Source: an uncultured virus (IMG/VR IMGVR_UViG_3300042477_000445)
Lineage: Duplodnaviria; Heunggongvirae; Uroviricota; Caudoviricetes
DNA length: 64,000 bases
Virus record (IMG/VR): IMGVR_UViG_3300042477_000445
Location: 1-64,000 of that record
Strand: one strand, 5' to 3'
A program made the position numbers and the translations under genes. Each line of letters opens with the position of its first letter. Position 1 is the stretch's first letter. Positions 2,572 to 64,000 of the stretch are shown in pieces. Under the pieces are notes generated by a model that worked only from the letters and a program-made list of their open reading frames with translations, was not told where the DNA came from and made no database searches.

Positions 2572-2575
2572 TAAA

Positions 2576-5861: not shown

Positions 5862-5864
5862 AAT

Positions 5865-19726: not shown

Positions 19727-21177
19727 TGAGCATTAGAAGATATATAGCAAACTCAGATAATACCATAACAAATGCTTTCGAAGCAGATCTTACTACTCGC
19801 GGTACAGGGTCAAACATGGGAGCTTCTGATATTCTTGAAGTGTTTACCATCTACGGGCAAACAAGCGGCGCTTCTGGTTATACGAGAGAGGAATCAAGAA
19901 TTTTAATTAATTTTCCAATCTCAACAATTTCTTCGGATAGAACATCTAAATATATACCTGCTTCTGGTTCTGTGAGTTTTTTCTTAAAACTATACAATGC
20001 TATACATACATCCACAACTCCAACTAATTTTACTTTAAAAGTTGCCCCAGTTTCTGCTTCTTGGACTGAAGGCTTTGGTCTTGATATGGATGAGTATCAG
20101 GACCTTGGAGTATCAAATTGGATTTCTGCTTCTTTGACTTCTGGTTGGACTAATCAAGGTGGAGATTTTTTAACCGGTTCTGGGGCCTCTACTGGCTCTC
20201 AAACATTTGTTCTTGGAACTGAAGATTTAGATGTTGATATTACTGCTCAAGTTGAAAAATGGATCGCAGGAACAACTGGTTCATACGGACTCGCGGTTTA
20301 TCTAGATCCAGTACAAGCTACAGAGGCAAGATCATATTATACTAAAAAGTTCTTCGCAAGAACAAGTGAATTTCAATTATGGAGACCACACATAGAAGCA
20401 AGATGGAATTCTCAAATTGCAGACGATCGTGGTAATTTCTATATAAGCAGTTCTTTACTATCCACAGAAAATGTAAATACAGTATATCTTTACAACTATA
20501 GAAACGGAAAAGCAACAGATATTCCATCAATAGGAACTGGAAATGTTTATGTAAAAATCTATGAAACTCTTGGTGGTTCTGCTTCCTCTATGCCAGTTGC
20601 TGGTGGTGTTTCTGCGGGCAATACGTCGGTTGTAACGGGCGGTTGGGTTTCTACCGGTGTCTACTCCGCCTCGTTTGCTTACACGGGTTCTGCGTCAACA
20701 ATTTACGATGTATGGCAGAATCAAGCTGGTACAACTCTGTTTCACACAGGTACAATTTATCCAATAACTTACAATGCCTCTGGGGACTCGGATATACCAA
20801 ATTATGTATTAAAAGTCACAAATGCTCAACAAAAATATTATCAAAATGACAAGCCAAGACTAAGATTATTTGTTAGACAAAGGGATTGGAGTCCGACAAT
20901 ATATAATGTCGCTTCTACAGAAATAGAGTCTACAATAATCGAAAAAGCTTACTACCGCCTATTTAGAGTACAGGACAATTTTGATGTTGTCCCATATGGA
21001 ACAGGAAGTACACAACACACTCTCCTGTCTTTTGATGTAAGCGGAAACTACTTTGATTTTGATATGTCTATTCTAGAAAAAGGATATATGTACGGTTTCA
21101 AATTTGCTTTTGACTTACAGCAAAATGGTCAAATAGAAGAACAACCATATATCTTTAAATTTAGAGTAGAAGAATAA
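19726..21177 (+). CDS. Virion structural protein (baseplate-associated), Ser/Thr/Gly-rich
   Basis: Follows gp6; DNTI, SRILI-F, W-EG-G, W-NQGGD, RPHIE-RW pattern. Confidence 0.65.
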   Translation: MSIRRYIANSDNTITNAFEADLTTRGTGSNMGASDILEVFTIYGQTSGASGYTREESRILINFPISTISSDRTSKYIPASGSVSFFLKLYNAIHTSTTPTNFTLKVAPVSASWTEGFGLDMDEYQDLGVSNWISASLTSGWTNQGGDFLTGSGASTGSQTFVLGTEDLDVDITAQVEKWIAGTTGSYGLAVYLDPVQATEARSYYTKKFFARTSEFQLWRPHIEARWNSQIADDRGNFYISSSLLSTENVNTVYLYNYRNGKATDIPSIGTGNVYVKIYETLGGSASSMPVAGGVSAGNTSVVTGGWVSTGVYSASFAYTGSASTIYDVWQNQAGTTLFHTGTIYPITYNASGDSDIPNYVLKVTNAQQKYYQNDKPRLRLFVRQRDWSPTIYNVASTEIESTIIEKAYYRLFRVQDNFDVVPYGTGSTQHTLLSFDVSGNYFDFDMSILEKGYMYGFKFAFDLQQNGQIEEQPYIFKFRVEE

Positions 21178-24100
21178 TGAGTATAAAAGACCTCTGGCAA
21201 AAACAAAAAGAAAACAAACTTTCTGTAAAAACAATTAATTCACAGAATTCTCAAGAATTCTTTAATGAAGTTGAATCACCAGATTATGTAACTCAATATC
21301 AAAAAAGCATTAATTTATATCTCCAAGATGTTAATTTTGCTACAGCATCAAACTTTGCAAGATTTGGATCGGCAAGAAAATATTATGAAAATTTAACTAC
21401 AAGAATAACAGAAACATATACTGGCAAAGATGTTTATTATCCATATGATGGATCAAAAGCAAAACAATTAGAATTTGAAAATAATTTAAATCCATATGAA
21501 AAATATATATTTCTTTACGAGTATCCAAGATCAACTGGATATGTTGAGTTCGGTAGAACGTGGGATGCGGTAGGGTCAGGGGTCAGTGGATTCGGCGCAA
21601 CAAATACACCAGAGTATATTAAATTTTTTAATCAAAATAACGATAATATATACGATCCAGACAATGGACTTAGAGAAAATACTAGATTTATTCCAGAATC
21701 TGGAAGTACAATAGAATTTTGGATGAAAAAAAATGCTTTTCCAAATTCAGCGACACAAACTGCTAAAGAATGTATTTTTTATACAAAAACATATGATTCT
21801 GATAAACTTTTAATAATTTATATAGATCAAGCGGTTAATACAGGTTCTTTTGTTATAAATTATAAATATTCTAATCTTGGAACTTCAGATCTAATTTATG
21901 TATCAAGCAGTCTTTCTACTCTTGCTGATTCTAATTGGCATCATCATGCTTTCGTATTTAGTACCTCTTCTGGAAAAACTAGCATAGATTATTATTTAGA
22001 TGGTGTTTATAGGAATACAAATTCTACTTCAACTACTTCTTTAACTTACAGTTTAACAGGATCATGCCTCAACGCGATCGGTGCGTTAGGCGGTAAGATA
22101 ACTTCTGCTGGATCTGATTTGATTGGGTATGGTAAATTATCTGGATCAATTGATGAATTTAGATTTTGGAATACAAAAAGAAATGCAAAACAAATTGGTT
22201 TAAATTATTTTACTACTATTGGTGGCGGAAATAATGTAATTAATAATTCTAGTATTGGAATATATTACAAATTTAATGAAGGAATATATGGAGATTCTTC
22301 TGTGGATTCCGTGATTTTAGATTATGCAGGTGGAAATTGTAACGGACAATTTGTGGGTTATAATTCTAACTCTAGAAACACAGGTTCTGCCATAACTTCT
22401 ACTCAAGATAACCCAGAACTTGGAACTCCCATATTGAGATATGGTGATCCGTTGGTTCAAACATTTTTAACAGAAAAATTGTATTATGCTGATGAACATG
22501 ATTTTACAAATAATTTTATGTTAAAAAACTCAATCCCATCATGGATCCTAGATCAGGATAATGATAATGGTGGAACATTAGTTAATTTTCTTCAAACAAT
22601 TGCAAGTTATTTAGATACTTTATATCTTCAAATAAAAACACAAAAAGATCTAAAAAATAAAGATTATTTAAATTACGAAGGTAAGGCTCCACCCTTTTCA
22701 GATTTATTGCTAACATCGGCAGGGTTTGATTTACCATCTCTATTTTTAAATACAGATATTGTACAATCTTTACTAAATCAAGATTCTAAAAAAACATACA
22801 ACGAAAGTATAAATGATTTGAAAAATATTATTTATAAAAACATATATAATAATTTGGAATTGTTATATAAATCAAAAGGAACAGAAAATTCTATAAAGCA
22901 ATTGATTAAAAATTTTGGTGTAAATCAAGATATTTTTTCATTAAATATTTATTCTAACAATACTCAATATGAGTTAGAAAATAATTTTGTTAATAAATCA
23001 ATTAAAAAAGATTATATAGATTTTACACCATTTTCTTCTTCGATAAATTCAACCGCAGTCGTCTACCAAATAAATACAGAGTCCGGTACTTCTCCATTTA
23101 TAACTGGTACACTAAATAATCAATTGTCTTTTACTGCAGAGTGTGATGTTGTTATACCAAGTTTCCCTAAAAATTATGATTATTTACAATATAAAACATT
23201 AACTTGGAATACTTCCTCCGTATTTGGCATTAGAACCGCTGGACCAGGAACAGTAGGACTAGGTGGAATAACATATGATACAATTGTACCATCTGGGGAC
23301 CCTGCTGGATTAAAGGTTAGGTTTATCTACAGAGATAACAAAGGATATTTTTCTTTAAATTATCCTTCCGCAAGTGTAACATTAACTTCATCTATTTTTG
23401 AAGATATAACAACAGATCAACATTGGAATTTATCTGTAAGATTAAAACCAGTTTATACTGGAAGTAGTTATGTATTAGAGTTTGCTGGTTATTCTAATTT
23501 TGTTTCAGATAATTTTAGATCCTTTTCTGTTTCCTCTAGTTTACCATCTACGAGTGGTTCTTTGTTACTCTCGACAAGCAAAAGACTTTATGTTGGAGCA
23601 GAAAGAGATGATGTGACAGGATCTTTGGTATATAAATCTTTAATAAAAGGTTTGTCTGCTAAATACTGGGCAGATTATTTAACAGCGGAAGAACTAAAAG
23701 AACACGCAAAGAATCCAAACAATTATGGTCGTTTACAACCATATGAACCATACACATTAGCAACCTCAAGTTATATTCCAAAATCCGAAACACTTTTGTT
23801 ACACTGGGATTTTACAAATGTTACTTCCAGTAATTCAAATGGAAATATAAATTTAATTTATGATTTAACAAGTGGAAATACTTTTGGAAATTCATACGCC
23901 AATACTCCGTTAGAATATTTAGTTGGGAGAAGATATGACGGAAAAGGTTATGGTTTTAACCCCAGTTCAACAATTAAAAATTATGAATTAGTATATTCTT
24001 CCGAGCAACAATCACCAGAAAATGTTTATTCCAATCAATTAGTTAATATTCTAGCAACCGATGATGATTATTATACAACTGCAATAAGACCACAAAAATA

Positions 24101-24776
24101 TTTTTTCTCTTTAGAAAACAGTATGTATGATGTAATATCAAAGAACATGTTAAATATGTTTGCATCAATTGTAGAATTTAATAATTTTATTGGTGAGCCT
24201 GGAAATTTGTATAAAGCACAATATTCAAAACTTAAATTTTTCAGAAAAATATTCTTTGATAAAGCTTCAAACACACCAGATTTAGATAAGTATGTTGGTA
24301 TTTATAAATGGCTTGATGATGCATTAGATAGTATTTTGTTTAATTTAATACCCGCTTCTGCAAACGCTAATGATAAAATTAGAACAATGGTGGAGAATCA
24401 CGTTCTAGAAAGAAGCAAAATTCAATTGCATTTACTGCCAGACGAAGGAACAAATATTGTAGGAGGCAATACTCCAAATCCTGGTAATGCTAATGCGGTA
24501 TTGCCTCCTCCCGGTTCCTCAATTAATATAACTCCGCTTCCTCCAATTTTTTTACCAGAGATTCCAATACCAGGAAAGCAACCTAAAAAGAGAGGATATG
24601 CCCAACCAAAAAATAAAAAGATTGATTATGTAGATGTTAGTGGATTGATACCTGCAGAAGGTTCATTCATAACTCTATATGAAATTCCATCATCTTTTAT
24701 ATCATATTTGTCCTTTAATAAAAGAACGAGAGAGCAGAAAAAAACTATATCAGCTAGAATAGGAAGAGGAAGATGA
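21177..24776 (+). CDS. Virion structural protein with LamG/concanavalin-like domain
   Basis: TIEFWMK, WHHHAFV, YLDG, GSIDEFRFWN; KSKGT motif typical of baseplate wedge proteins. Confidence 0.75.
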   Translation: MSIKDLWQKQKENKLSVKTINSQNSQEFFNEVESPDYVTQYQKSINLYLQDVNFATASNFARFGSARKYYENLTTRITETYTGKDVYYPYDGSKAKQLEFENNLNPYEKYIFLYEYPRSTGYVEFGRTWDAVGSGVSGFGATNTPEYIKFFNQNNDNIYDPDNGLRENTRFIPESGSTIEFWMKKNAFPNSATQTAKECIFYTKTYDSDKLLIIYIDQAVNTGSFVINYKYSNLGTSDLIYVSSSLSTLADSNWHHHAFVFSTSSGKTSIDYYLDGVYRNTNSTSTTSLTYSLTGSCLNAIGALGGKITSAGSDLIGYGKLSGSIDEFRFWNTKRNAKQIGLNYFTTIGGGNNVINNSSIGIYYKFNEGIYGDSSVDSVILDYAGGNCNGQFVGYNSNSRNTGSAITSTQDNPELGTPILRYGDPLVQTFLTEKLYYADEHDFTNNFMLKNSIPSWILDQDNDNGGTLVNFLQTIASYLDTLYLQIKTQKDLKNKDYLNYEGKAPPFSDLLLTSAGFDLPSLFLNTDIVQSLLNQDSKKTYNESINDLKNIIYKNIYNNLELLYKSKGTENSIKQLIKNFGVNQDIFSLNIYSNNTQYELENNFVNKSIKKDYIDFTPFSSSINSTAVVYQINTESGTSPFITGTLNNQLSFTAECDVVIPSFPKNYDYLQYKTLTWNTSSVFGIRTAGPGTVGLGGITYDTIVPSGDPAGLKVRFIYRDNKGYFSLNYPSASVTLTSSIFEDITTDQHWNLSVRLKPVYTGSSYVLEFAGYSNFVSDNFRSFSVSSSLPSTSGSLLLSTSKRLYVGAERDDVTGSLVYKSLIKGLSAKYWADYLTAEELKEHAKNPNNYGRLQPYEPYTLATSSYIPKSETLLLHWDFTNVTSSNSNGNINLIYDLTSGNTFGNSYANTPLEYLVGRRYDGKGYGFNPSSTIKNYELVYSSEQQSPENVYSNQLVNILATDDDYYTTAIRPQKYFFSLENSMYDVISKNMLNMFASIVEFNNFIGEPGNLYKAQYSKLKFFRKIFFDKASNTPDLDKYVGIYKWLDDALDSILFNLIPASANANDKIRTMVENHVLERSKIQLHLLPDEGTNIVGGNTPNPGNANAVLPPPGSSINITPLPPIFLPEIPIPGKQPKKRGYAQPKNKKIDYVDVSGLIPAEGSFITLYEIPSSFISYLSFNKRTREQKKTISARIGRGR

Positions 24777-42400: not shown

Positions 42401-42595
42401 AACTTGTTTATTCTCGATGAACCAGCAACATCTCTTGATGCTGACCACTTAGAGAGTTTTATTAAGGTTCTAGAAATGATTAAAACACAATTTAAGCTTG
42501 TATTATTAATCACTCACCTAGATACATTAAAAGATTCGGTTGATAAAATAATTGAGATCAACAAGGACGAAGAGGGATTTGCGTATTTCAACTAA
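39473..42595 (+). CDS. Fused Mre11/SbcD nuclease + Rad50/SbcC ATPase (T4 gp47-gp46-like)
   Basis: ADIH, GDIAH, GNHD, GDIH in the N-terminal part; Walker A GKNYSGKS, coiled coil, CSGAEK signature, ILDEP, ITH. Confidence 0.93.
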   Translation: MKFAHIADIHIKNLKHHNTYEHIFGQLYNAVEKEEVDCIVCCGDIAHTKTNISPEFVEMASRLFNNLADIAPLYIILGNHDGNLKNADRQDAITPIVEAINNPRIKLLKNSGEFHINEEFCLNVLSIFDRDNWIKPSNPDKINIALYHGAIQGAKTDTGWAMKDTDDSINIFDDFDFAFLGDIHKQQFLTDRVAYCGSTIQQNFGEEINKGILVWTIKDKKNFSVKPVNFQNPSPFITCEYSGVNPVVPAGSNVRIVLDKYYDQEFIEKLKRDIQLRCNIKSILIVNKHAKEVENKVEDTDKTKLNLRDNNVQQDLIKEFLSSENLTDEQLQQVLDINTKFNLDAEIKDETARNVKWELAKFEWDNLFNYKEGNKLDFSELSGIVGIFGKNYSGKSSVIDSLLYTLFNTTSKNIRKNFDVINERKNSGKGRIEIKTGNGEYVVLRETEKNIKKSKGKLVEEGKTSVDFEFTDVSLNINSLNGNDRNETDKNIRKEIGTYEDFCNTSLSTQHGSLDFINEGSARRKEILANFLDLQIFENKYKPANQYANELKSLIKKLEIKDYSKILVDIHFKHHASLNVLSEVNESVESLKQEQELLQDKLNKLTADLAKVEDPIDIEKITSLQEQLNSKLSQIESLISDKKTELKTHEDTIAKINEVIERLNVEELKKKQETSKKITKEIDAILYDKKLKNNSLSIYKKSAGLIETVPCGKDQYKDCSFKKNAYESLEEISIVELALKSLEEKEELLKGDLLKLDTDKVNEYLDKYSKLQIKSGDSSKKVASLLKELVDLQAKQSKIQEEQKENEKLMIRYESNRELYENIGELEKQKESLIKSKSSSFVQLKEEENRQKKAIADLASIEQQIDSYEEQIEELNRLKKEYSSYELFLKCTHNSGIPFELIKRTLPIINEEINSLLANIVEFEASFQNEDGKLEIYIKHPNSSPRAIENCSGAEKSLVAMAIRLALIKCGSLPVSNLFILDEPATSLDADHLESFIKVLEMIKTQFKLVLLITHLDTLKDSVDKIIEINKDEEGFAYFN

Positions 42596-42602
42596 CTATT
42601 TA
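42595..42602 (+). promoter_or_regulatory. Putative late promoter motif ACTATTTA
   Basis: Followed by AGGAGG RBS and ATG 42625. Confidence 0.65.
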
Positions 42603-42624
42603 TATCACCACTAGGAGGTGCATC

Positions 42625-42693
42625 ATGGCAAAAGGTAATGGAAATGGCAAAAAGCCAGAAAAGAAAGAAGTAAAGAAACCAGTTAAGAAATAA
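42625..42693 (+). CDS. 22-aa Lys-rich peptide MAKGNGNGKKPEKKEVKKPVKK (not in ORF track)
   Basis: Perfect AGGAGG RBS, upstream motif and downstream terminator. Confidence 0.7.
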   Translation: MAKGNGNGKKPEKKEVKKPVKK

Positions 42694-42710
42694 TTTTTCT
42701 TCACTTCTAG

Positions 42711-42742
42711 GGCACCAAGAATAAAACCTTGGTGCCTTTTTT
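42711..42742 (+). terminator. Rho-independent terminator
   Basis: GGCACCAAG / CTTGGTGCC perfect 9-bp stem followed by a T run. Confidence 0.88.
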
Positions 42743-42751
42743 ATTTGCGAT

Positions 42752-42759
42752 ACTATTTA
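42752..42759 (+). promoter_or_regulatory. Putative late promoter motif ACTATTTA heading the head/packaging operon
   Basis: Just after the terminator, before AGGAGG and ATG 42785. Confidence 0.65.
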
Positions 42760-42784
42760 TTGTATAATCTCAGGAGGATTAGTT

Positions 42785-42949
42785 ATGGCAGATCAAAAAC
42801 CAAAAGGACACGGACCAGCAAAAGTTGCTCCATTTACACAAAGCCCAGGTACAGGAAAAGGAAGTAATTGGCCAAAACCAGGTGCTCCAAATACAAAAGG
42901 TTTCAGTGAAAAAGTTGGCAAAGGCCACAGCGCTCCAAAGCCAAAATAA
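42785..42949 (+). CDS. 54-aa Lys/Gly/Pro-rich basic protein (not in ORF track)
   Basis: MADQKPKGHGPAKVAPFTQSPGTGKGSNWPKPGAPNTKGFSEKVGKGHSAPKPK with AGGAGG RBS. Confidence 0.75.
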   Translation: MADQKPKGHGPAKVAPFTQSPGTGKGSNWPKPGAPNTKGFSEKVGKGHSAPKPK

Positions 42950-42958
42950 GAGGTAGTT

Positions 42959-43315
42959 ATGCCTTTTGATCCAAAACAGATTCCTGCTCTTGAAAAAACA
43001 GTTGAGATCAAGTATGGCGAAAAAGCCATACTTGATCCTTCTGTATTTTGGACTGCAGAAAAAGAAAAGATATACCTTGAACAAGTTAAAGAAGTTGAGA
43101 AATATTATCGTCAACAGCCATACGAAAATTACAAAGATCAAGGTGGATTTATTGTTAAAGAAAAACTACTTAATAAGAGGAACTTTAAAAATTGTTCTTA
43201 CTGCGGAGAGCAAGCATATAAGACAGACGACGAAGTTTATATGACCAAGTTTGATTGCTGTTCTAAATGCTATGTTATACACCTAGAAGGAAGAGAATAC
43301 AAATGGCAGAAATAG
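42959..43315 (+). CDS. Hypothetical protein with C-terminal Cys cluster (putative zinc finger)
   Basis: CSYC ... DCCSKC; GAGG RBS. Confidence 0.75.
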   Translation: MPFDPKQIPALEKTVEIKYGEKAILDPSVFWTAEKEKIYLEQVKEVEKYYRQQPYENYKDQGGFIVKEKLLNKRNFKNCSYCGEQAYKTDDEVYMTKFDCCSKCYVIHLEGREYKWQK

Positions 43316-54229: not shown

Positions 54230-54472
54230 ATGGCAAACAAGAGAGTTAATGTCGAAGTTAAACTAAGACTAGGCGAACATCAAGATAAAATGATCAAAAG
54301 ATTTCTTAATAAAGTTAAGAAAGAAAAGATTGTTGAAGAGTTACAAAATAGAAGATATTATGAAACTCCAACAGCAAAAAGATCAAGATTGAAGAATCGT
54401 AGAAAGAAAGTACTTGCTAAACTTCGTAGAGAAAGAGAAGCAATCGACAGACCAAAAGAAAAGAAAGATTAA
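54230..54472 (+). CDS. rpsU: Phage-encoded ribosomal protein bS21
   Basis: V-V...E--DKMIKRF--KVKK--I--E---RRYYETPTAKR, basic C-terminus. Confidence 0.85.
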   Translation: MANKRVNVEVKLRLGEHQDKMIKRFLNKVKKEKIVEELQNRRYYETPTAKRSRLKNRRKKVLAKLRREREAIDRPKEKKD

Positions 54473-54970: not shown

Positions 54971-56779
54971 ATGAGTTCAATGTTAGAGCAAGCAATTCTA
55001 GATGCTAAAGAATTAAAAGAAGCAGCAATTAAAAACGCCCAACAGTCCATTATCGAGAAATACTCTAATGAATTTGAAGGTGAGATAGAAAAACTACTAG
55101 AACAAGCCGCTGCTCCAGCTGATCCCGCTGCGGCTGCTCCCGCTGCTGATCCAATGGCCGGTCTTGGTGCTGCTCCTGCGGCTGCTCCTATGCCCGGTAT
55201 GACCATGCCAGGATCTGCTCCTGTTGATCCAGAAAAAGCAAAGTCAGACTCAGATAATAAATCTTCAATGTTTGATAAACTAAATTATGCTTTTAAAGAC
55301 GGAGAAGTAATTGAAGATAAAATTTTCCCAACAGGACTTGTTGAGGTAGATTTAGATTCTTTGTCAGAATTTAGTTTTGAAGATAATAAAAAAACACCAG
55401 AACAAATGGCGTTACAAGAACTTAAAAACCTTTCTCTTAGAGAGCAGATTGAAGAAGAAATGAATGATGACGATGATTATGATTTCGATTCAGATTCTTT
55501 TCCATATGAAGACTCAGAAGAAGAAGATGATGAGAATGAAGAAGAATCAGAAGAAGACGAAGAACTAGACGACGAAGAATTCGAAGATGAAGACGAATTA
55601 GAAATGGACGATGAAGATTTTGAAGATAAAGATATGGAATCCGATTCGGATGAATTAGCAGATTTACAAGATTATAATGATGAAGGTAGTGTTGACCTAG
55701 AAGACGAAGAATCCGATATGGACATTGATATTGAAGACGAAGAGTTTACAGACGACGAAGATATGGAAGATGAAGATCTTTATGGCACAGAAGACGATGT
55801 AGGATTCCACGTTGATTACGATACAGACGAAGAGGATGAAGAATCCGAAGAAGACTATAATCCAGACGCTGACGTAGAAGATTTTGAAGATGAAGAGTCA
55901 GAAGAAGATGTAGACGAAGAAGAAGAGGACTCCGAGGAAGACGAAGAGGACGAAGAATATTATTATGACGACGAAGAGGAAGATTCTGAGGAAGACGAAG
56001 AAGATTCCGAAGAGGACGATGAGGAAGAATCAGAGGACGAGGAAGAAGATTTAGATGAAGCAAGAGATTTAACAGATAAAGAAAAGTCTAAACTTGACGA
56101 TATTATTTCAAGATTAGAGAGAGCCTCTAAGTCTATCGAAAAAGGTAGTGCAAAGAATATGGTTGATGCTTCTGCTCGTCAACTAAAAGATCTACTAGAT
56201 TCTCTTAAGGGTTCGGATAAAGAAGAACTACAAGAAGCTATTAAACTTGATTGGAAGAGATCTGGTCAAAGATCTCCATTCACCGGTATGTTTAAAGAAG
56301 AGGCAGAGCATGATTACATGCTAGAGCAAGTTCAAGCACAAATTGAAGCATTAGAACAAGAAGTCGAAGAACTTCAAGAATCTAATAAAAAACTAAAAAG
56401 TGGTTTAAAAGAGTCAATTAATCTTGTTGAAAATTTAACTGATAAAGTTAAAAAATATGAACAAAAATTGCACGAATCAAGATTATTGAATTATAAGCTA
56501 CTATATACTAATAAGGCGCTATCAGATAGTTCCCTAAATGGACAGCAAAAAAATAAAATTGCTGAATCTATTGACGGTGCCAAGACAGCTGAAGAAGTAA
56601 AATTGCTTTATGAAACATTAAAAAGCACAATGCGGGATGGAACCAGTAGAAGTACACCCAAATCATTGAGCGAGGCAGTTGAAAGACGTTCTTCTTCACT
56701 TTTGCTAAGAGGCTCTCGTGCGGAGCCTAAGAAGCAAGATGATTTTGCTGAACGTATGAAACGGTTAGCAGGTTTATAA
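54971..56779 (+). CDS. Prohead scaffold (T4 gp22-like position) with ~200-aa Asp/Glu tract
   Basis: Directly upstream of MCP; coiled-coil C-terminus ending RMKRLAGL. Confidence 0.8.
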   Translation: MSSMLEQAILDAKELKEAAIKNAQQSIIEKYSNEFEGEIEKLLEQAAAPADPAAAAPAADPMAGLGAAPAAAPMPGMTMPGSAPVDPEKAKSDSDNKSSMFDKLNYAFKDGEVIEDKIFPTGLVEVDLDSLSEFSFEDNKKTPEQMALQELKNLSLREQIEEEMNDDDDYDFDSDSFPYEDSEEEDDENEEESEEDEELDDEEFEDEDELEMDDEDFEDKDMESDSDELADLQDYNDEGSVDLEDEESDMDIDIEDEEFTDDEDMEDEDLYGTEDDVGFHVDYDTDEEDEESEEDYNPDADVEDFEDEESEEDVDEEEEDSEEDEEDEEYYYDDEEEDSEEDEEDSEEDDEEESEDEEEDLDEARDLTDKEKSKLDDIISRLERASKSIEKGSAKNMVDASARQLKDLLDSLKGSDKEELQEAIKLDWKRSGQRSPFTGMFKEEAEHDYMLEQVQAQIEALEQEVEELQESNKKLKSGLKESINLVENLTDKVKKYEQKLHESRLLNYKLLYTNKALSDSSLNGQQKNKIAESIDGAKTAEEVKLLYETLKSTMRDGTSRSTPKSLSEAVERRSSSLLLRGSRAEPKKQDDFAERMKRLAGL

Positions 56780-56810: not shown

Positions 56811-58640
56811 ATGGCAAGTATAGTCGAAAGATTAACAGAAAATATTGTTGAAAGAAATCTCCTTCGTGAAGGCGCTGCCCTCTCAAAGAAATGGGAAAGA
56901 ACAGGTCTTCTAGAAGGAATCGATAGTGAGATGACAAAGACAACCATGTCTCGTCTTCTCGAAAATCAAGCAAAGGAACTACTCCGCGAAGCTTCCACAA
57001 TGTCCGCAGGTGACGTTGAAGGTTTCGCAGCAGTTGCATTCCCAATTGTTAGACGCGTATTCGGTGGTCTAATTGCAAATGAACTCGTTGCAGTTCAACC
57101 AATGAGCCTCCCAAGCGGTCTAATCTTCTTCCTTGATTTTACCTATAGCAATGACACAGGAAACAAAACATTCGCTGGTGCAGTCGGTGGCCAATCTATT
57201 TACGGCGGTAACGTTGTAGCTAGCCAAATCACTGGTGGTGTTAGCTTAACTGGTGTTGATGCAAGTGGCGTACAAAACCTAGAAAAGAGCTTCTACTCTT
57301 TAAATAACGGTTTCTCAAGCGTAACTGGCTCAAGAGTGCTTAATCATTCTTGGAATTATGGCAACGCTGGTAAGGCTGGTGCATCTTCTACGGTTGTTGT
57401 TTACCAAACTTCCAGCTGGACAGACGTTGGTCTATCAACTGCTACAGGTAGTTCATTAACTGGCTCAACAGATGCAGCGTTCGTCGCATACGATCCAGAT
57501 GTTCTTGCAGACACTTCTGCTTTAACATACCAAAAATTAAGACTATTCTTTGATTTGGGAACTTGGAATCAACTAGATAGAAATAATCTAGTAGCAATCA
57601 ACATTACTGGTTCAACAATTTCTGGTTCATTGGTTAGAAGACTAACTAAATTGGGTCCAGTAAGCCAATCTTTAGATGTAGTTGTTAAAACAGATGCTGG
57701 TGCTCCAATTTCAGAAGTTGGTGTTGCCCCATCTATTGCATCAACAACTTTTGCAATTAGGGATACATTAACAACTGGTAATTCTATAGGTTCTGTTCTT
57801 ACCGATCTATATGGTCTAGAAGGCGCTGGATCTGGTTCAACATTGAATGGTCAGGATATTCCTGGGGCTAACTTTACAATTCCAGAGATTGACATCAAAG
57901 TTGATAGCATCGCTGTAACAGCTCAAACCAAGAAACTCAAGGCCAAGTGGTCACCAGAATTAGGTCAAGACCTAAATGCTTACCATAATCTTGACGCCGA
58001 AGTTGAGTTAACAAGCATCCTCTCCGAGCACGTTGCTCTTGAAATCGATCAAGAAATCCTCAACGATCTCGTTAAGGGTGCAACAGCTGGTACTAAGTAC
58101 TGGAGCCGTAGACCAGGTAAGTTTGTCAACCGTGACACAGGTGCAAGCATCACATCAGTTGGTGCCCCACCAGACTTCACAGGTAATGTCAGCATGTGGT
58201 ATGAAACACTCATTGAAACAATCAATGACGTTTCTGCTCAAATCCACAGAAAGACAAGACGTGGTGGTGCAAACTTCCTCGTAACTTCACCAGAAGTTGC
58301 TAACCTCCTAGAGTTCACCTCTGGTTTCCGCGCTGATGTCAGCATGGAAGACCTAAAGGGCGGTTCAGTTGGCGCAGTCAAGGCTGGTAGCCTCAGCAAG
58401 AAGTTTGATCTTTATGTTGATCCATATTTCCCACGCAACCTAATCCTAGTTGGTCGTAGAGGCAAGGCATTCCTCGAAAGCGGTTATGTCTACGCTCCAT
58501 ACGTCCCACTAATGATTACACCAACAATCTTCGGTACAGAAGACTTTGTACCAAGAAAGGGTCTAATGACTCGCTACGCCAAGAAGATGGTTCGTCCAGA
58601 CATGTATGGCCTAGTAGTTTGCCAAGACCTAATTGGTTAA
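56811..58640 (+). CDS. Major capsid protein (T4 gp23-like)
   Basis: KWERTGLLEG, LLENQ, FPIVRRVF, VQPMSLPSGLIF, KLKAKWSPELGQDL-AYH-DAE-EL, EIDQEI, YAPYVPL, TRYA. Confidence 0.97.
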   Translation: MASIVERLTENIVERNLLREGAALSKKWERTGLLEGIDSEMTKTTMSRLLENQAKELLREASTMSAGDVEGFAAVAFPIVRRVFGGLIANELVAVQPMSLPSGLIFFLDFTYSNDTGNKTFAGAVGGQSIYGGNVVASQITGGVSLTGVDASGVQNLEKSFYSLNNGFSSVTGSRVLNHSWNYGNAGKAGASSTVVVYQTSSWTDVGLSTATGSSLTGSTDAAFVAYDPDVLADTSALTYQKLRLFFDLGTWNQLDRNNLVAINITGSTISGSLVRRLTKLGPVSQSLDVVVKTDAGAPISEVGVAPSIASTTFAIRDTLTTGNSIGSVLTDLYGLEGAGSGSTLNGQDIPGANFTIPEIDIKVDSIAVTAQTKKLKAKWSPELGQDLNAYHNLDAEVELTSILSEHVALEIDQEILNDLVKGATAGTKYWSRRPGKFVNRDTGASITSVGAPPDFTGNVSMWYETLIETINDVSAQIHRKTRRGGANFLVTSPEVANLLEFTSGFRADVSMEDLKGGSVGAVKAGSLSKKFDLYVDPYFPRNLILVGRRGKAFLESGYVYAPYVPLMITPTIFGTEDFVPRKGLMTRYAKKMVRPDMYGLVVCQDLIG

Positions 58641-58663
58641 TCAACTAAGGGTTAATTAAGCAG

Positions 58664-58696
58664 AACCCCTGTCAGGGAAACTTGACAGGGGTTTTG
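58664..58696 (+). terminator. Rho-independent terminator after MCP
   Basis: AACCCCTGTCAGG-GAAA-CTTGACAGGGGTT stem with GNRA loop, then T-rich tail. Confidence 0.9.
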
Positions 58697-58708
58697 TGTT
58701 TCTGATAA

Positions 58709-58716
58709 ACTATTTA
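58709..58716 (+). promoter_or_regulatory. Putative late promoter motif ACTATTTA
   Basis: After the terminator, before AAGGAG and ATG 58732. Confidence 0.65.
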
Positions 58717-58731
58717 TCAAAAGGAGAAACT

Positions 58732-60603
58732 ATGAAAAAACTTTTATTATCTTTATTATTGTTGACTGCATGTGGCGACGATTTAGGTTGGGAACACAAA
58801 GAAACAAAACACGATTGTGCTGATGCAGTTGTTGGAGACAGCGGTGTTTGTAATTTATGTCAAGACGTAACGGAGACAAAAGATGAGCAATCTGGAACAG
58901 AAGAAGTTGTTAGCGATGTTGCTGACAGTACCCAAAGTGACGTTCTCGCTGACAGTGGGAGCGATGACGCTGACGTTTCTGTCCCTGATGGCGTTACAGG
59001 AACGGACACAGAAGATACGCAAGATGCACAAGATGTACCAGAAGATGTAACTCAGGACGTTGCTCCACCACCAGAATGTGTTACGGCGACCGATTGTGTC
59101 GTTATAGCTTTGCCTTGTGTGGCACCAGATTGCCAAGAAGGTAAGTGTGTTAAAGTTCCATTTGATACACCATGTTCCGATAATAATGAATGTACGGCAG
59201 GCGATCAATGCCAACTTGGTGTATGTGTTGCTGGTATTCAAATTAATTGTGACGATCTAGAATCTTGCACATTAGATTCTTGCGAGGCAGATAAAGGTTG
59301 CGTACATTTGCCAGTTGATGCAACTTGTGTCGATGGAGATGGTTGCACCGCAGAAGATATTTGCAAAGATGGTAAATGTGTAGGCGGTAAACCATTTAAT
59401 TGCGATGATGGAAATGTTTGCACAGATGATACTTGCGAGACATTTGGTAAGGATGAAATTCATGTTTGTAATCATTTGCCAAATCAAGCGACTTGTACAG
59501 ACAACGATGTTTGCACATTAGATGATGCCTGTGAGGGTGTTGTTTGCAAATCAAAAGCAGTTGCTATTTGTGATGATAATAATGTTTGTACAGACAATAC
59601 TTGCGATCCAGCAAATGGTTGTGTTTATTTAGCAAATGTAGCAACTTGTACCGACAATGACGCTTGTACTGTGAATGATTTATGCTCCGAAACTGTTTGT
59701 AAATCTGGATTAGTATTAAGTTGTGCAGATAATAATGAATGTACAACTGATCTATGCAAGTCAGAATCAGGTTGTTATTTTGAGAATAACACAAATGTTT
59801 GTAGCGATAATAATGTTTGTAGCATTGACGATAAGTGTGAGGCAGGATCATGTATTGCTGGCGCTCAAAAGGTTTGTGATGACGCTAATCTTTGCACCGT
59901 TGATTCATGTGATGCTGTAAATGGATGTGCTTCCGTAAATGCTGTTGATGGTACAAAATGTGCTGAAGGCGTCTGTAAAGACGGCTCTTGTGCTTGTGTA
60001 AGCGGGTTTGGCTGTGCTTTGCCTGCCTTCGTATATACTGGCGATGTGACTGCTGGTATGTTAGGAGGAATGGGTGGTGGTGTCGGTCCAAAGATGGGTT
60101 GCCCTGCTACTGATGTTTTAATCGGTTTAGGTTTTGATTTCAGTAATGGTCAAAAAACAGCCACTAGAACAACTGCCGTTTGTGGTAAAGTTACAATTGA
60201 ACAAAATGGAACTGTCATAACAACTCAAACAACTACACAAAAATCAGGTGGTTCTGGATGTTTTGGTTGGGATCCTTCAACTCCAACTCCGCTTGTAGTT
60301 TGCAAGAGTGGTTGGGCTGTTGTTGGTATTAAAGGCAAAAAACCCGGAGGCACTCTATTCAATTCTGTAAAAGTTGTTTGTGGTAAACTCGATGTTGCTG
60401 GCAAACCAACTGGCGAGACAGAAGTTTTAAATGTAGAAGGAACACTAGGCTCAGGTGTTGATCAAGAAGTATTATGCCCAGAAAAAACAATTGCTCGTTA
60501 TTTTGAGACAAGAGCTGGTTGTGGGCAAGATGCTTTGACTATGTATTGTGCTACTGCAACACCAGATTGTACTGGTCAAGAATTAATTTGTAAGGATTTA
60601 TAA
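58732..60603 (+). CDS. Lipoprotein with acidic linker, ~10 Cys-rich repeats and a three-fold repeated C-terminal (beta-prism/lectin-like) domain
   Basis: MKKLLLSLLLLTAC lipobox; CDDGNVCTDDTC-type repeats (Dictyostelium CTDC/myxobacterial style). Confidence 0.85.
   Translation: MKKLLLSLLLLTACGDDLGWEHKETKHDCADAVVGDSGVCNLCQDVTETKDEQSGTEEVVSDVADSTQSDVLADSGSDDADVSVPDGVTGTDTEDTQDAQDVPEDVTQDVAPPPECVTATDCVVIALPCVAPDCQEGKCVKVPFDTPCSDNNECTAGDQCQLGVCVAGIQINCDDLESCTLDSCEADKGCVHLPVDATCVDGDGCTAEDICKDGKCVGGKPFNCDDGNVCTDDTCETFGKDEIHVCNHLPNQATCTDNDVCTLDDACEGVVCKSKAVAICDDNNVCTDNTCDPANGCVYLANVATCTDNDACTVNDLCSETVCKSGLVLSCADNNECTTDLCKSESGCYFENNTNVCSDNNVCSIDDKCEAGSCIAGAQKVCDDANLCTVDSCDAVNGCASVNAVDGTKCAEGVCKDGSCACVSGFGCALPAFVYTGDVTAGMLGGMGGGVGPKMGCPATDVLIGLGFDFSNGQKTATRTTAVCGKVTIEQNGTVITTQTTTQKSGGSGCFGWDPSTPTPLVVCKSGWAVVGIKGKKPGGTLFNSVKVVCGKLDVAGKPTGETEVLNVEGTLGSGVDQEVLCPEKTIARYFETRAGCGQDALTMYCATATPDCTGQELICKDL
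59173..60000 (+). repeat. Tandem Cys-rich protein repeats (C-x-D-x-x-x-C-T/S-x-D-x-C), alternating two subtypes
   Basis: CSDNNEC, CDDLESC, CVDGDGC, CDDGNVC, CTDNDVC, CDDNNVC, CTDNDAC, CADNNEC, CSDNNVC, CDDANLC. Confidence 0.9.
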
Positions 60604-60605
60604 CA

Positions 60606-61556
60606 ATGAAAAAACTGCTCTTAACTCTCTTTTTATTACTATTATCAAATACTGCCAATGCTTGGGAAGCAACAGTTGGGCTTGGTGGCTATGGTAGGAT
60701 TTTTGACGAAAAGGATCAGTTAGGAGCAGTTTCAAAACATGAAAGTTTAATTCCAGAATTTTCAGGTGGGTTGGCATTGAATGGATCATTTCTGTTTGAT
60801 GCCAGCCCTTCTTTTAGAATTGGTCCAGATTTAATGCTTGGATACGGCTGGTTGTCTGCCCAAGTAAATGAAAGGTTTGGAACAAGTTTGCAAAATCAAA
60901 CTATTATTACCTCTCTAAATGTTCAGTATCAAATTTATGATTTTAGAGTTTCTGTAAAGCCCGGCTTTGTTGTCAATACTCTAACCGCTGGATACACAGA
61001 TAAAATTGACTCTGACACAGGTTTCTCTTCGTCCTTAAGATTTTCAACGGATCTATTTTCATCAGCAAGATTTTTTTTTGAGCCACAGGTTTTATTCTCT
61101 CCCTCTGTAGAATCAAAGAATTCTTTTGTTCCATCGTATAGTTTAACTTTGGGCTTTGAAAAAATCTTTTCGCCAAAGAAGGTTCCTGCTCCCGTTGTGG
61201 AGAAACCAGTAGAAGTAAAGCCAGCAGTGAAAACACCAGAACCAGTTGTTGAACCTATTAAACTTCCAGAACCAGCAACCCCAGTTAAGCAACCAGATCC
61301 ACCAGTTAAAGTTGAGGAAACTAAAGTAGAACCTCAATTAAATGTTGAGTCAAAAGGATACTTGGAAAACATATTAAAGGTTCATAAAGTATTAAAATCA
61401 TCCATTAAAATAATTTATAGTGAAGATAAGATTCTTAAAGAAAAGGCAGAAAAATTAGCAACTTGGTTTGCAGAGCGTGGAGTAAGTAAAGAAGATATTG
61501 TTCTAACAAACACGCTTGAAACAAAAGGCATAAGAATAGAAATTCTCAAAAAGTAG
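60606..61556 (+). CDS. Secreted outer-membrane beta-barrel protein with Pro-rich linker and degenerate OmpA-like C-domain
   Basis: Signal peptide ending ANA, amphipathic beta strands ending YSLTLGF, PAPVVEKPVE...PEP linker, KAEKLATWFAERGVSKEDI...RIEI. Confidence 0.6.
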   Translation: MKKLLLTLFLLLLSNTANAWEATVGLGGYGRIFDEKDQLGAVSKHESLIPEFSGGLALNGSFLFDASPSFRIGPDLMLGYGWLSAQVNERFGTSLQNQTIITSLNVQYQIYDFRVSVKPGFVVNTLTAGYTDKIDSDTGFSSSLRFSTDLFSSARFFFEPQVLFSPSVESKNSFVPSYSLTLGFEKIFSPKKVPAPVVEKPVEVKPAVKTPEPVVEPIKLPEPATPVKQPDPPVKVEETKVEPQLNVESKGYLENILKVHKVLKSSIKIIYSEDKILKEKAEKLATWFAERGVSKEDIVLTNTLETKGIRIEILKK

Positions 61557-61562
61557 GATAAT

Positions 61563-63626
61563 ATGTTAAAGAAAATAATACCGCTTTTATTTTTAGTCTC
61601 CTGTTCGCAAGAGACAGCAGCGCCCACTATTCAAGGGGGCATTGGCTTTGACATACAGCAAGACACCACCATCATTGTTAAAGATATAGAACAACCAGAT
61701 GTTATTGAATCAGACACAGAACCAGTGGAAGATACACAGGTAGAAGACGCGGAAAATGACCTAGAAAATACGGAAATAATAGAAGTAGAAGAAGATGCGG
61801 TCGAAGATGTTGAGCCTCCTGTAGAGGACACAGAAGAGCCTGAATGTATTGATGAAGACGGCGATGGGTTTGGTGAAAACTGCAACTTTGGTATTGATTG
61901 CGATGACTTCAATCCAAACTTTGGAGATGTATGCCCAGATTGCTCAAAGGCTGGAACTATAGGCTGTACTTGTTCTGGCAAGCCTTTATCGTGTTATGAA
62001 TACGATCCAGCGACAGTAGGAAAAGGCTTGTGTAAAAAAGGTCAGCAATTATGTACAGACGGCTTCTGGAAAGCATGTAGCGGGAGCATTGGACCAGCAC
62101 CAGAACTCTGCGACTTCAAAGACAACGACTGCGATGGCGAAACAGACGAGGGCGTAAAATCAACTTGTGGTAATTGTGATCTAACTTGTAATCAACAAAC
62201 TATTGGTTCTGGTGGTAAAGGATGGAATCTAAATAGTGAAAATGCTACAGGGCTTGGTTTGGATCCACAAGGTAATGTAACTCTTGATTTATCAGCGATC
62301 TCGCTCAACTTGAAGTTTATTTGGATCGCAAACTCACCAAATAACACTGTATCCAAAGTTGATTGTAAGACCATTACAGAAGTTGGTAGATTCCAAGTTT
62401 GCTCAGACCCTTCAAGAACTTCTGTTGACCTTGAGGGAAATGTTTGGGTTGCTTGCCGTGGCGATGGTGCCGTAACAAAAATTATCGCAGATAAAACAAA
62501 ATGTGCTGATAAAAACGGCAATGGTATTATTGAAACATCGACAAGCTCACAGCCAATAGGCAATGATGAGTGTATCAAGTTTATTGTAAACCCCGGCAAA
62601 GGATCTTATGCTAGAGGTGCCGCTGTAGATAAAGAAAATCATGTATGGATAGGTTATTGGAACCAAAAAACAATGGTTCGTCTTAATGCCAACACTGGCG
62701 CAACGATGACGGAAATTCCATTGGGTGTATCGCCCTATGGTTTAGTAATTGACCAAAAGGGAATGATCTGGGCGCAAGGTGAGTTCAACACGCTGGTCAT
62801 GATAGACCCTTTGACACAAGTCGTTACAAAGAATAATACCTTACCACAACTAAAGTTCCCTGCTAGTGCTTACGGGCTTAATGTAGATAAGTATGGTCGT
62901 TTGTGGGTTGCTTCGGGCAACAAAGCATCTGTTTATGATCCCAAGACATTACAATGGAAGGTCGTTAACATGAACTGGGGTGGTGGTCGTGGTGTTGCTA
63001 CATCAAATGATGGTTATACTTATGTCGCCGTAGATGGTTCAGGCGGGGCAGTAAAAATAAATGGCAATGTTGATCCACCACAAGTAGAAGGTTTTATCAA
63101 GGGAGCAGGAAGCCCTGTCGGTGCTGCTATTGACTATGATGGTTTTGTTTGGGTCGTAAATCAAGGTGGTTCAAGCGCAACAAAGATGGATCCAAATACA
63201 ATGTCTGCGGTAGGAACTGTTTCAGTTGGTTCATCTCCATACACATACTCAGACATGACTGGTTATACTCTAAACTACTTTACTGCGCCAAAAGGTCAAT
63301 ACAGCACAGTATTCTTTGGAAGTGTATCATCAAACCCAATAACAACTTCCACAATGAAACAAGTGTGGCAGTCAATTTCAGCAGAAGCGGATCTTCCAGA
63401 AGGGACAGCATTGAGGTTTAGATTAAGAGCGGGCAATACAAAAGTAGAACTAGAAAATGCTAAATGGTCTGAGCCTATTGATTTTCCGCCAGAAGTATTT
63501 CCTTATGATCTTACCAAGGCAAATATTATCGGCAACATGCTACAAGTTGAAATACAGTTGACAACAAAAGATAAAAAGGTTGCTCCAACTCTAAAATCTA
63601 TAACGGCGAAGTCCAAACTGATTTAA
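61563..63626 (+). CDS. Lipoprotein with MopE-like metal-binding motifs and a beta-propeller (Vgb/NHL-like)
   Basis: LFLVSC lipobox; DEDGDGFG...DCDD, ELCDFKDNDCDGETDEG; repeated VD--G-VW blades; PYTYSDMTG. Confidence 0.8.
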   Translation: MLKKIIPLLFLVSCSQETAAPTIQGGIGFDIQQDTTIIVKDIEQPDVIESDTEPVEDTQVEDAENDLENTEIIEVEEDAVEDVEPPVEDTEEPECIDEDGDGFGENCNFGIDCDDFNPNFGDVCPDCSKAGTIGCTCSGKPLSCYEYDPATVGKGLCKKGQQLCTDGFWKACSGSIGPAPELCDFKDNDCDGETDEGVKSTCGNCDLTCNQQTIGSGGKGWNLNSENATGLGLDPQGNVTLDLSAISLNLKFIWIANSPNNTVSKVDCKTITEVGRFQVCSDPSRTSVDLEGNVWVACRGDGAVTKIIADKTKCADKNGNGIIETSTSSQPIGNDECIKFIVNPGKGSYARGAAVDKENHVWIGYWNQKTMVRLNANTGATMTEIPLGVSPYGLVIDQKGMIWAQGEFNTLVMIDPLTQVVTKNNTLPQLKFPASAYGLNVDKYGRLWVASGNKASVYDPKTLQWKVVNMNWGGGRGVATSNDGYTYVAVDGSGGAVKINGNVDPPQVEGFIKGAGSPVGAAIDYDGFVWVVNQGGSSATKMDPNTMSAVGTVSVGSSPYTYSDMTGYTLNYFTAPKGQYSTVFFGSVSSNPITTSTMKQVWQSISAEADLPEGTALRFRLRAGNTKVELENAKWSEPIDFPPEVFPYDLTKANIIGNMLQVEIQLTTKDKKVAPTLKSITAKSKLI

Positions 63627-63629
63627 CAA

Positions 63630-63637
63630 ACTATTTA
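63630..63637 (+). promoter_or_regulatory. Putative late promoter motif ACTATTTA
   Basis: Intergenic, 5 nt before ATG 63643. Confidence 0.55.
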
Positions 63638-63642
63638 TAGTA

Positions 63643-64000
63643 ATGTTAGTTATTTTTAAGCTGAGTTTCTGGATCAGCTTATTGTTCTCTTGTAGACCAG
63701 TAGATCCAGTAATAAGCAACAAAATAATTGATTCAGTTGAGTTTCAGGAATCGAGAGGTGTAGCTTCTGTAAGAGATAATGGTTATTGTGTTGGGTTAAT
63801 GCAGATAGATAGAAGATATTCTCCAATACAAAAACCTTATTTAAAAATTCCTTATCTCAATCGAATCATTGGCGTGCGAATGCTTCGATATTGGCATAAG
63901 CAGGCGAGAGGTGATATGAATCATGCTCTTGCGGCCTATAATTGTGGATATGCTGGATTAAATACCACTTGCGGTTCTGGATATGCCAGCGCCGTTTTAA
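63643..64000 (+). CDS. Lytic transglycosylase (SLT domain), runs off the window end; not in ORF track
   Basis: Translated by hand: MLVIFKLSFWISLLFSC...QESRG...VGLMQI...ALAAYNCG...GYASAVL (ES, GLMQ, AYN motifs). Confidence 0.88.
   Translation, partial: MLVIFKLSFWISLLFSCRPVDPVISNKIIDSVEFQESRGVASVRDNGYCVGLMQIDRRYSPIQKPYLKIPYLNRIIGVRMLRYWHKQARGDMNHALAAYNCGYAGLNTTCGSGYASAVL

Follow-up and report, generated by a model that had tools for sequence, protein, structure and literature searches.

A mobile three-gene cassette for predicted surface proteins, inserted next to the capsid gene of a T4-like lake phage, with an architecture resembling myxobacterial TraA/TraB

We analyzed a stretch of 64,000 nucleotides, hereafter the window, which corresponds to bases 1-64000 of the 74,862-base viral contig IMGVR_UViG_3300042477_000445 (estimated to be 33% complete) of an uncultured T4-like phage, and focused on the genes located 3' of its major capsid gene. 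Three of these genes (58732-63626) form an insert of about 4.9 kb that is bounded by an 11-nt motif repeat. Genes 1 and 3 code for predicted lipoproteins and gene 2 for a predicted outer-membrane barrel, and the set, which is mobile between genome positions within a lineage of T4-like lake phages, probably serves to alter the surface of the infected cell. Our tentative reading, to which we give a probability of about 0.42, is that it is a moron-like mobile cassette giving the infected cell a stalked lectin adhesin with a wall-tied barrel anchor, for adhesion to neighbours or particles. The features of the locus are the following.

56811..58640, plus strand: Gp23-type major capsid gene, the left flank (Pfam PF07068, 2.3e-69; phrog_138, 1.1e-69)
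58660..58697, plus strand: terminator hairpin of the capsid gene, 17 pairs followed by a T-run, letter for letter the same in L161 and L162 (empty site)
58707..58717, plus strand: left copy of the 11-nt repeat AAACTATTTAT, containing the promoter-like motif ACTATTTA (58709-58716)
58721-58726, plus strand: Shine-Dalgarno sequence AAGGAG, 6 nt 5' of the ATG at 58732
58732..60603, plus strand: gene 1, predicted stalked lectin-like lipoprotein, 623 aa
59077-59991, plus strand: Cys-repeat stalk of gene 1, residues ~116-420
60031-60567, plus strand: predicted beta-prism head of gene 1, residues ~434-612
60606..61556, plus strand: gene 2, predicted outer-membrane protein of OmpA architecture, 316 aa
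61563..63626, plus strand: gene 3, predicted beta-propeller lipoprotein of the NHL/SGL type, 687 aa
63628..63638, plus strand: right copy of the 11-nt repeat AAACTATTTAT, the resident motif found 5' of the transglycosylase in all its homologues
63643..64158, plus strand: gene 4, resident lytic transglycosylase, 171 aa, ending outside the window and lying outside the insert

An earlier note on this DNA, drawn up without database searches, had described four genes with export signals behind the capsid-gene terminator, preceded by a motif and a ribosome-binding site (RBS), and we found all of these features again where it had placed them. It had also counted the transglycosylase as part of the module, and on this point the comparison with related phages led to another result. 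Homologues of the transglycosylase occur in nine other viral contigs (54-64% identity). In L159-L163 the order is capsid gene, the same hairpin, AAACTA(C/T)TTAT, transglycosylase and neck gene, with a spacer of 83 nt and no cassette, and the neck gene is 87-88% identical to that of the phage studied here. L165 and L166 have a different insert of 1.28 kb at the same spot, and in L164 and L167 the transglycosylase gene is found inside tRNA arrays, again just 3' of the motif. In the window, the three extra genes are flanked by two exact copies of AAACTATTTAT, 4921 nt apart. Gene 2 and the head of gene 1 were not found anywhere in the 111.6-kb and 117.4-kb records of close relatives, the gene 2 profile having recovered the gene in G004 as a positive control. 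Since it is present in relatives that do not have the other three genes, the transglycosylase is the resident gene of the lineage and lies outside the inserted unit, and a four-gene module was rejected.

The cassette genes were also found in none of 80 capsid-related loci. These loci cover only 10 kb on either side of the capsid gene and belong to distant relatives (53-61% identity, one segment 73%), so that their number makes a weak argument for insertion, which we replaced by that from the closer relatives. At the capsid/neck junction of this set (L003-L082), additional DNA of 0.2-2.8 kb is present in 31 of 72 distant relatives (e.g., L012 12482-13123, L044 3784-4317, and L069 3269-4213). 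It often encodes a family starting with MGTKRVGLARIEAL plus a short Lys-rich open reading frame (ORF), and at the L069 junction a lipoprotein with a weak VWA match. The capsid/neck junction is a hot spot for accessory genes.

Modular shuffling mediated by early-promoter stem-loops (PeSLs) is described for T4-like phages (PMC4122927). The present case is alike in that the insert lies at the junction of a terminator hairpin and a promoter-like motif, with the motif repeated at its ends and other inserts found in relatives. It is unlike in that PeSLs are the early-promoter stem-loops of coliphage-type T4 relatives, whereas the motif here precedes structural genes. By analogy, a PeSL-like mechanism may be acting at this junction, and the motif would then have a role in recombination.

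The number of ACTATTTA copies in the window, 12 against 6.6 expected, was not significant (12 was reached in 8 of 100 shuffles), and we rejected the count alone as evidence; only the placement of the copies was significant. Along the 74.9-kb contig, 8 of the 12 plus-strand copies fall in the intergenic 1.9% of the sequence (binomial P 8e-12), and the minus strand has 2 copies. The intergenic copies lie 13-36 nt before gene starts, with one at 515 nt. They are found 5' of the scaffold-like gene, gene 1, the transglycosylase, the tail sheath gene and others, and the neck gene has a further copy 28 nt ahead of it; the motif was found again at matching places in related phages. It behaves like a putative promoter of structural genes. 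In the relatives whose transglycosylase upstream regions were read (L159-L162, L164-L167), AAACTAyTTAT ends 4-9 nt before the transglycosylase ATG with no Shine-Dalgarno sequence between them; a leaderless transcript is possible, as is a true start elsewhere.

We then considered whether the region could be an artefact, i.e., host DNA joined to phage DNA by assembly, or else dead cargo, a recent and neutral pick-up. Close Myxococcota relatives exist for gene 3 and for the head of gene 1, and the G+C content of the insert (~0.40) is above the window mean (~0.31). G+C is 0.24-0.39 over most of the window and 0.39-0.42 across its final 8 kb, and the capsid gene is as high as the insert. Phage genes are found on both flanks, and two other viral contigs are 100% identical to the region, over 22 kb and 8.7 kb. 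The stretch is present in 24 lake or freshwater runs, of which 13 are not flagged as a possible source. In two of these 13 (X18 and X21), contigs with zero differences bridge the capsid-to-gene-1 and the transglycosylase-to-neck junctions, and a single X18 contig runs from the end of gene 1 through the whole of gene 2 into the start of gene 3. We conclude that this is no chimera; chimeric host DNA was among the outcomes that the earlier note had named as undoing its proposal. As for dead cargo, the natural variants across the region are mostly third-codon-position changes in gene 1 (8 of 9) and gene 3 (3 of 4), as against 4 of 11 for the gene 2 linker, a bias which indicates genes under selection, and phages with a terminase only 55% identical to the one here have retained the set. 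Both versions of this explanation are hardly credible.

Profile scans with gene 2 recovered the set in 10 metagenome loci and 2 further viral contigs, and in all 12 of these other loci with gene 2, gene 1 lies directly 5' of it. In the loci with flanks (L141, L142, L130, L131, and L139), the set is located between an SbcCD-like gene and the terminase gene, amid replication and packaging genes. These sister phages are 55% (terminase) and 65% (portal) identical to the phage of the window, and gene 2 is only 36-45% identical between phages. Gene 3 follows in five loci, and it is replaced in L137-L139 by two other proteins, one of 221 aa (218 aa in L137) and one of 161 aa. In this propeller-less variant (L139 6073-7388; L138 3122-4285), a 277-aa protein with a signal peptide and a 155-aa protein precede the cassette, which is followed by the 221-aa acidic protein, the 161-aa YunG-like protein and then a PG_binding_1 endolysin-like gene. 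The SbcCD-like/terminase position is nearly empty in the phage studied here: at window positions 42595-43266, there are two ACTATTTA copies, each followed by an RBS and a short Lys/Pro/Gly-rich ORF, with a terminator-like hairpin between the two ORFs. The four proteins (transglycosylase included) had no match in 50,697 GenBank phage records (tblastn, E <= 1e-3).

The location between capsid and neck genes could suggest that the Cys-repeat protein and the propeller are virion parts, capsid decoration or fibre proteins, and the small junction genes of unassigned family in distant relatives could themselves code for decoration proteins. In the sister phages, the set sits away from structural genes. 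The lipoboxes and the type-I signal peptide are conserved across homologues, gene 2 is modelled as a membrane-embedded barrel, and the 64 Cys of gene 1 would be awkward in the cytoplasm, where tailed-phage heads are assembled. We thus regard virion parts as very improbable, and the earlier description of the products as exported envelope proteins, other than ordinary virion or spanin proteins, agrees with the lipoboxes, the signal peptide and the barrel model.

The product of gene 1 begins with a signal and the lipobox LLTAC, whose Cys14 is followed by GDDLG; the lipobox and GDDLG are found together in all eight N-termini listed. The lipoboxes of genes 1 and 3 (L-x-[GAS]-C), read from the sequence, are kept in the phage and bacterial homologues listed. 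An acidic linker (residues 45-115) precedes about a dozen Cys repeats matching Pfam PF00526 (Dicty_CTDC, 4e-19), of which homologues gain and lose whole units. A total of 64 Cys fits folding in an oxidising compartment. The C-terminus ends in ...ELICKDL and has neither a hydrophobic helix nor an Arg tail. Gene 1 is 68-80% identical between phages, and its head (74-86%) is the best-kept part of the set.

The head comprises the last ~190 residues and was modelled with AlphaFold2 (AF2) at a pLDDT of 74 and a pTM of 0.74. In a structure search, 36 of 48161 chains reached Z >= 2, and the higher-scoring ones were all beta-prism domains: VMO-I (Z 13.3, root-mean-square deviation (rmsd) 2.6 over 140 aa), ZG16 (Z 12.9) and Heltuba (Z 12.6), with plant jacalin-related lectins also leading the list. 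Sugar-binding prisms of Vibrio cholerae Bap1 (Z 8.7) and RbmC (Z 8.1) were recovered as well, together with the sugar-binding prism of the V. cholerae cytolysin. Foldseek returned a list of jacalin-related lectins (from 2.1e-5), and a protein-language search gave VOMI and Jacalin as weak leads. Nothing meaningful was found by sequence searches of solved structures, whether with the head alone or with its profile, or in Pfam at E up to 5. The model thus gives the head a three-fold beta-prism fold of the jacalin/VMO-I type, and the lectin-like tip proposed from the sequence is borne out at the level of the fold. Three Gly-rich...Asp loops, GLGFDF, GGSGCFGWD, and GCGQD, are invariant in the head alignments and presumably resemble the sugar loop of jacalin-type lectins, and the head may bind sugars.

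The head profile matches 4 of 201 sampled Myxococcota genomes. The best match (47% identity over 205 aa, E 1e-63) is a 1482-aa Myxococcota protein in L157 that has the head at its N-terminus, a signal peptide, 16 TIGR02232 (myxo_disulf) repeats and a MYXO-CTERM tag above the cut-off, a make-up that reads as the layout of TraA with another head. It shares with gene 1 a homologous beta-prism head, a disulfide-rich stalk and a lipid-type anchor, and differs from it by the N-terminal position of the head, the TIGR02232 repeats, the MYXO-CTERM anchor and the lack of a barrel gene beside it.

Gene 2 has a signal peptide (residues 1-19, ending in ANA|WE). Its AF2 model (pLDDT 78) shows eight strands at residues 20-188, ending in Phe and with pLDDT > 90, then a Pro-rich linker (about residues 189-249) that is disordered in the model, and a tail with an alpha-beta-alpha-beta-beta domain (residues 250-316). 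The barrel matches OmpW (Z 17.5), the transmembrane domain of OmpA (16.5), and others including OprF and NspA (range 15.8-17.5), and the tail matches the OmpA-like domain 3td3 with a middling Z of 7.8 (rmsd 2.3 over 70 aa, residues 247-316). The nearest Atlas clusters are OmpA families (0.93-0.94). At the sequence level, neither the gene 2 profile against solved structures (where no OmpA chain was matched) nor Pfam at E up to 5 with the barrel and the tail gave anything meaningful. The barrel and the Pro-rich linker predicted earlier from the sequence are thus present in the model, together with a tentative OmpA-like tail; the absence of such folds in this segment (60606-61556) would have spoken against the proposal. 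Gene 2 resembles the OmpA/OprF family (OOP) by its eight-stranded barrel, Pro-rich hinge and periplasmic OmpA-like fold, and is unlike it in that its tail has about half the usual length and that no sequence match to PF00691 or to a solved OmpA chain was obtained. The gene 2 family comprises 45 homologue clusters, all on short contigs.

The organization of genes 1 and 2 recalls the TraA/TraB pair of Myxococcus xanthus. In PMC12045341 and PMC3325183, TraA is described as consisting of a head, a Cys-rich stalk and a lipid anchor and as sitting on TraB, itself a barrel with a linker and an OmpA domain, and the TraA authors note that PF00526 repeats resemble those of TraA (PMC3325183). Both systems comprise two adjacent genes in the same order, the first for a lectin-type head on a Cys-rich stalk with a lipid anchor (the stalk of gene 1 matching PF00526), the second for a partner with a signal peptide, an outer-membrane barrel, a linker and, tentatively for gene 2, an OmpA-like domain. 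The differences are nonetheless numerous. The gene 1 head is a predicted beta-prism instead of a PA14 domain (no Pfam match to PA14 at E <= 0.01 for the whole protein or at E <= 5 for the head), and neither TIGR04201 nor MYXO-CTERM (TIGR03901) was found in gene 1, for which a scan at E <= 1 gave no NCBIfam family at all, the same scan having found the tag in the L157 protein. The lipobox of gene 1 is N-terminal, with the chain running from anchor to head, whereas TraA runs from head to anchor, and the gene 1 head is conserved where that of TraA is polymorphic. Compared with TraB, the linker of gene 2 is Pro-rich instead of TSP3, and its OmpA-like part has only about 70 aa and is unmatched by PF00691. 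Finally, the present set is encoded by a phage. We take the gene 2 barrel, from its model, as a match of fold class and not as a homologue of TraB, and the caution of the earlier note that this is an analogy in architecture and not orthology was right.

Gene 3 has the lipobox FLVSC (Cys14), an acidic linker, a MopE-type Cys motif (3.5e-5, below the Pfam cut-off), a propeller (Pfam SGL, 38.1 bits against a cut-off of 26.3; 3e-9 with the Pizza and PknD propellers) and a beta-rich C-terminal part for which Pfam at E up to 5 gave nothing meaningful. We recovered 253 homologues. Of 201 sampled Myxococcota genomes, 51 contain relatives, frequently as several copies and with up to 74% identity; the loci of the closest ones have a G+C content of 64-66%, and one relative is followed by a two-component system, a plain chromosomal context. 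In the trees, the gene 3 sequences from phage loci formed two separate low-G+C clades, each beside high-G+C Myxococcota sequences, and a single phage clade was rejected by the approximately unbiased (AU) test (p 0.0002, for a group named after the first tree had been seen). Phages and Myxococcota have thus exchanged gene 3 at least twice; on our reading it is an exchangeable third member of the set, taken more than once from a Myxococcota family. At its MopE part, contigs from four runs have loose ends of high G+C (L127 10541-10591; window ~62100-62150), and this short, conserved stretch is also present in other, G+C-rich organisms of these lakes.

The myxobacterial link noted earlier is thus stronger than first described, with a head 47% identical to that of a MYXO-CTERM protein and a propeller found in a quarter of the sampled genomes, and repeated gene exchange with Myxococcota suggests itself as the best clue to the host. 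The G+C content of the phage (30-40%) is far from that of the Myxococcota loci; large phages can lie well below their host in G+C, as does phiKZ relative to Pseudomonas, and we did not count the mismatch as decisive against a Myxococcota host. By their capsid protein, the nearest cultured relatives are myoviruses of Flavobacterium, Microcystis, and Rhodothermus (40-48% identity).

From these elements, the following scenario can be proposed. The cassette was inserted 3' of the capsid-gene terminator, ahead of the promoter-like motif that belongs to the resident transglycosylase gene. Judging from their sequence signals, all three products would be made as precursors with Sec signals; those of genes 1 and 3 would be lipidated by the host lipoprotein pathway and sent to the outer membrane, and that of gene 2 would be inserted by the host barrel-assembly machinery. 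Genes 1 and 2 would form a conserved core, similar to TraA/TraB in its working without belonging to that family. The product of gene 1 would be a lipid-anchored rod stiffened by disulfides that holds a lectin-type beta-prism head off the cell, and it would bind the barrel of gene 2, whose periplasmic OmpA-like domain may tie the assembly to the wall. A lipid-anchored stalk on a barrel with a wall-tying domain would make a new sugar-binding adhesin on the infected cell, which could stick to neighbouring host cells or to particles, so that the burst would be released beside new hosts. Taken together, the export signals, the 64 Cys, the variant bias and the strict pairing of genes 1 and 2 are best read as indicating a stalked lectin adhesin whose anchor is tied to the wall.

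Several observations weigh against it. The head model is of middling confidence, with two of its five models having a pLDDT of only ~50. The conservation of the head, in contrast to the polymorphism of the TraA head, argues against kin recognition. The tail of gene 2 is short, with a fold match that is only middling and no PF00691 match at E <= 5. Among 301 sampled Myxococcota genomes, gene 2 has no clear relative (one weak match, to the linker and tail, E 1.4e-5), and the gene 1/gene 2 pair therefore has no known cellular model. A wall-cutting gene adjoins the set in both of its genomic positions, which fits a role in lysis equally well. In the sister phages, gene 1 starts 12 nt after the SbcCD-like gene and has no motif before it. 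The late expression claimed in the earlier note is thus only a possibility, suggested in this phage by the promoter-like motif before gene 1, and cannot be generalized to the sister phages, where the motif is missing. No RNA run is listed among those that contain the stretch, and the gap in G+C with the closest Myxococcota loci makes the inferred host tentative.

We also weighed a second possibility involving contact between cells, in which the infected cell acts as a donor, either through a TraAB-like junction or by riding the outer-membrane exchange of the host. Ahead of lysis, phage lipoproteins, including the propeller, would then reach uninfected neighbours, which would be prepared or marked for the following round of infection. 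We consider this improbable.

The neighbouring wall-cutting genes raise the question of lysis. In the window, the neighbour is the transglycosylase, which has an SLT domain (3.5e-8, 33.5 bits against a Pfam cut-off of 21.3), a hydrophobic N-terminal segment with LLFSC, and a Glu-Ser within ...EFQESRG whose Glu we take to be the catalytic residue of SLT enzymes; its ORF overlaps the next gene, and sequence searches of solved structures gave nothing meaningful. In L130, the next gene codes for a PG_binding_1 protein matching endolysin PHROGs; after it come three small proteins that have hydrophobic segments at the N-terminus or internally. As a lysis accessory, the set could weaken or detach the outer membrane late in infection, or sense the outside to tune the timing of lysis; with its OmpA-like periplasmic fold, gene 2 might mimic OmpA and compete for the wall during the action of the neighbouring wall-cutting enzyme. 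The adjacency in the window, however, results from an insertion into a junction where unrelated inserts are found too (L165 and L166), close relatives manage without the cassette, and phages of the L130 type already have an endolysin-like gene and three small membrane-type proteins alongside. A lectin head on a long stalk has, moreover, no evident role in membrane rupture, and a lysis accessory seems to us distinctly unlikely.

Another explanation, superinfection exclusion or protection of the progeny, would have the surface proteins mask, bind or mimic the phage receptor on the cell and its debris, so that other phages are kept out and new virions are spared from the debris, as with Cor or T5 Llp but with a stalked decoy. 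T5 Llp is a phage lipoprotein of the entry-blocking class, and the exclusion proteins known so far are of small size and work within the membrane plane, whereas the stalk of ~300 residues would hold the lectin-type head far from the membrane. The head is homologous to that of a host-type surface protein, possibly itself a receptor, and, as is usual for exclusion genes, the cassette is accessory and has a patchy distribution; yet the head is highly conserved between divergent phages, and an arms race over a receptor would be expected to diversify it. Entry-blocking outer-membrane proteins and lipoproteins of phages form an established class; Cor, for instance, inactivates FhuA (PMC3594210). We judge exclusion rather unlikely, and retain the adhesin as the preferred reading.

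Examined for the features of phage morons, the cassette is absent from close relatives, has a promoter-like motif upstream, and has no terminator of its own after gene 3. Known envelope morons, T5 Llp among them, are mostly from temperate phages. Those such as Lom and Bor of lambda and Cor of HK022, N15, and phi80 (PMC3594210) similarly encode barrels or lipoproteins as add-on units amid structural genes, which are made and exported by the machinery of the host. They are, in contrast, single small genes, mostly expressed from the prophage, whereas here three large genes travel together and include a stalked lectin with a dedicated barrel partner, and no lysogeny genes were seen in the 75-kb contig of this T4-like phage. 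The cassette is thus a phage accessory unit for envelope proteins that is larger, multi-gene, mobile, and made of myxobacterial parts. We found no description of such a phage-borne module in a limited set of literature on MYXO-CTERM, phage barrels and lipoproteins, and Myxococcota jumbo phages; the "moraphage" paper concerns another lineage (PMC12619734).

Host-surface-altering phage genes being known mainly as single small genes of temperate phages, it is of interest that a multi-gene surface module is retained in a lineage of T4-like lake phages and shifts between positions in their genomes. This module is made of parts from the myxobacterial surface-protein toolkit, with one member (gene 3) taken from bacteria at least twice, and with the lineage-specific sorting tag replaced by a lipobox, for which no lineage-specific sorting enzyme would be needed. 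If the pair is an adhesin, the virus could control where its burst is released in dilute water. A compact and conserved two-protein analogue of TraA/TraB could also help to separate the features needed for adhesion from those needed for membrane fusion, and the gene flow with Myxococcota would be the best host clue so far for an abundant group of uncultured lake phages.

The remainder of the contig is that of a T4-like phage. All called genes but two are on the plus strand. The products of the window include baseplate wedge proteins, the large terminase, a T4-type portal, a head protease and the Gp23-type capsid protein, and the rest of the contig, 3' of the window, codes for a weak match to a head-tail adaptor, a tail sheath and two tube proteins. 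The 609-aa capsid protein matches the Gp23 profile in two pieces (profile positions 2-62 and 126-354), leaving ~250 unmatched residues in its middle that likely form an insertion domain. Just 5' of the capsid gene, a 602-aa protein (54971-56779) with a very long Asp/Glu-rich middle and coiled-coil-like ends has no family match; its ends are conserved in 65 of the 80 related loci, and from its position it is probably the scaffold. A homologue of ribosomal protein S21 is encoded at 54230-54472 (phrog_21469, 1.2e-7), with 56 homologues that are mostly on short contigs. A sugar-modifying cluster at 900-7760 comprises an aminotransferase, a FabG-like reductase, a phosphoheptose-isomerase-like gene and two nucleotide-sugar epimerases, and may modify the host surface or the phage's own parts. 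Finally, amid large baseplate or fibre genes, a 1199-aa protein (21177-24776) with a concanavalin-A-like Laminin_G_3 domain (5.7e-12) is a candidate receptor-binding protein.

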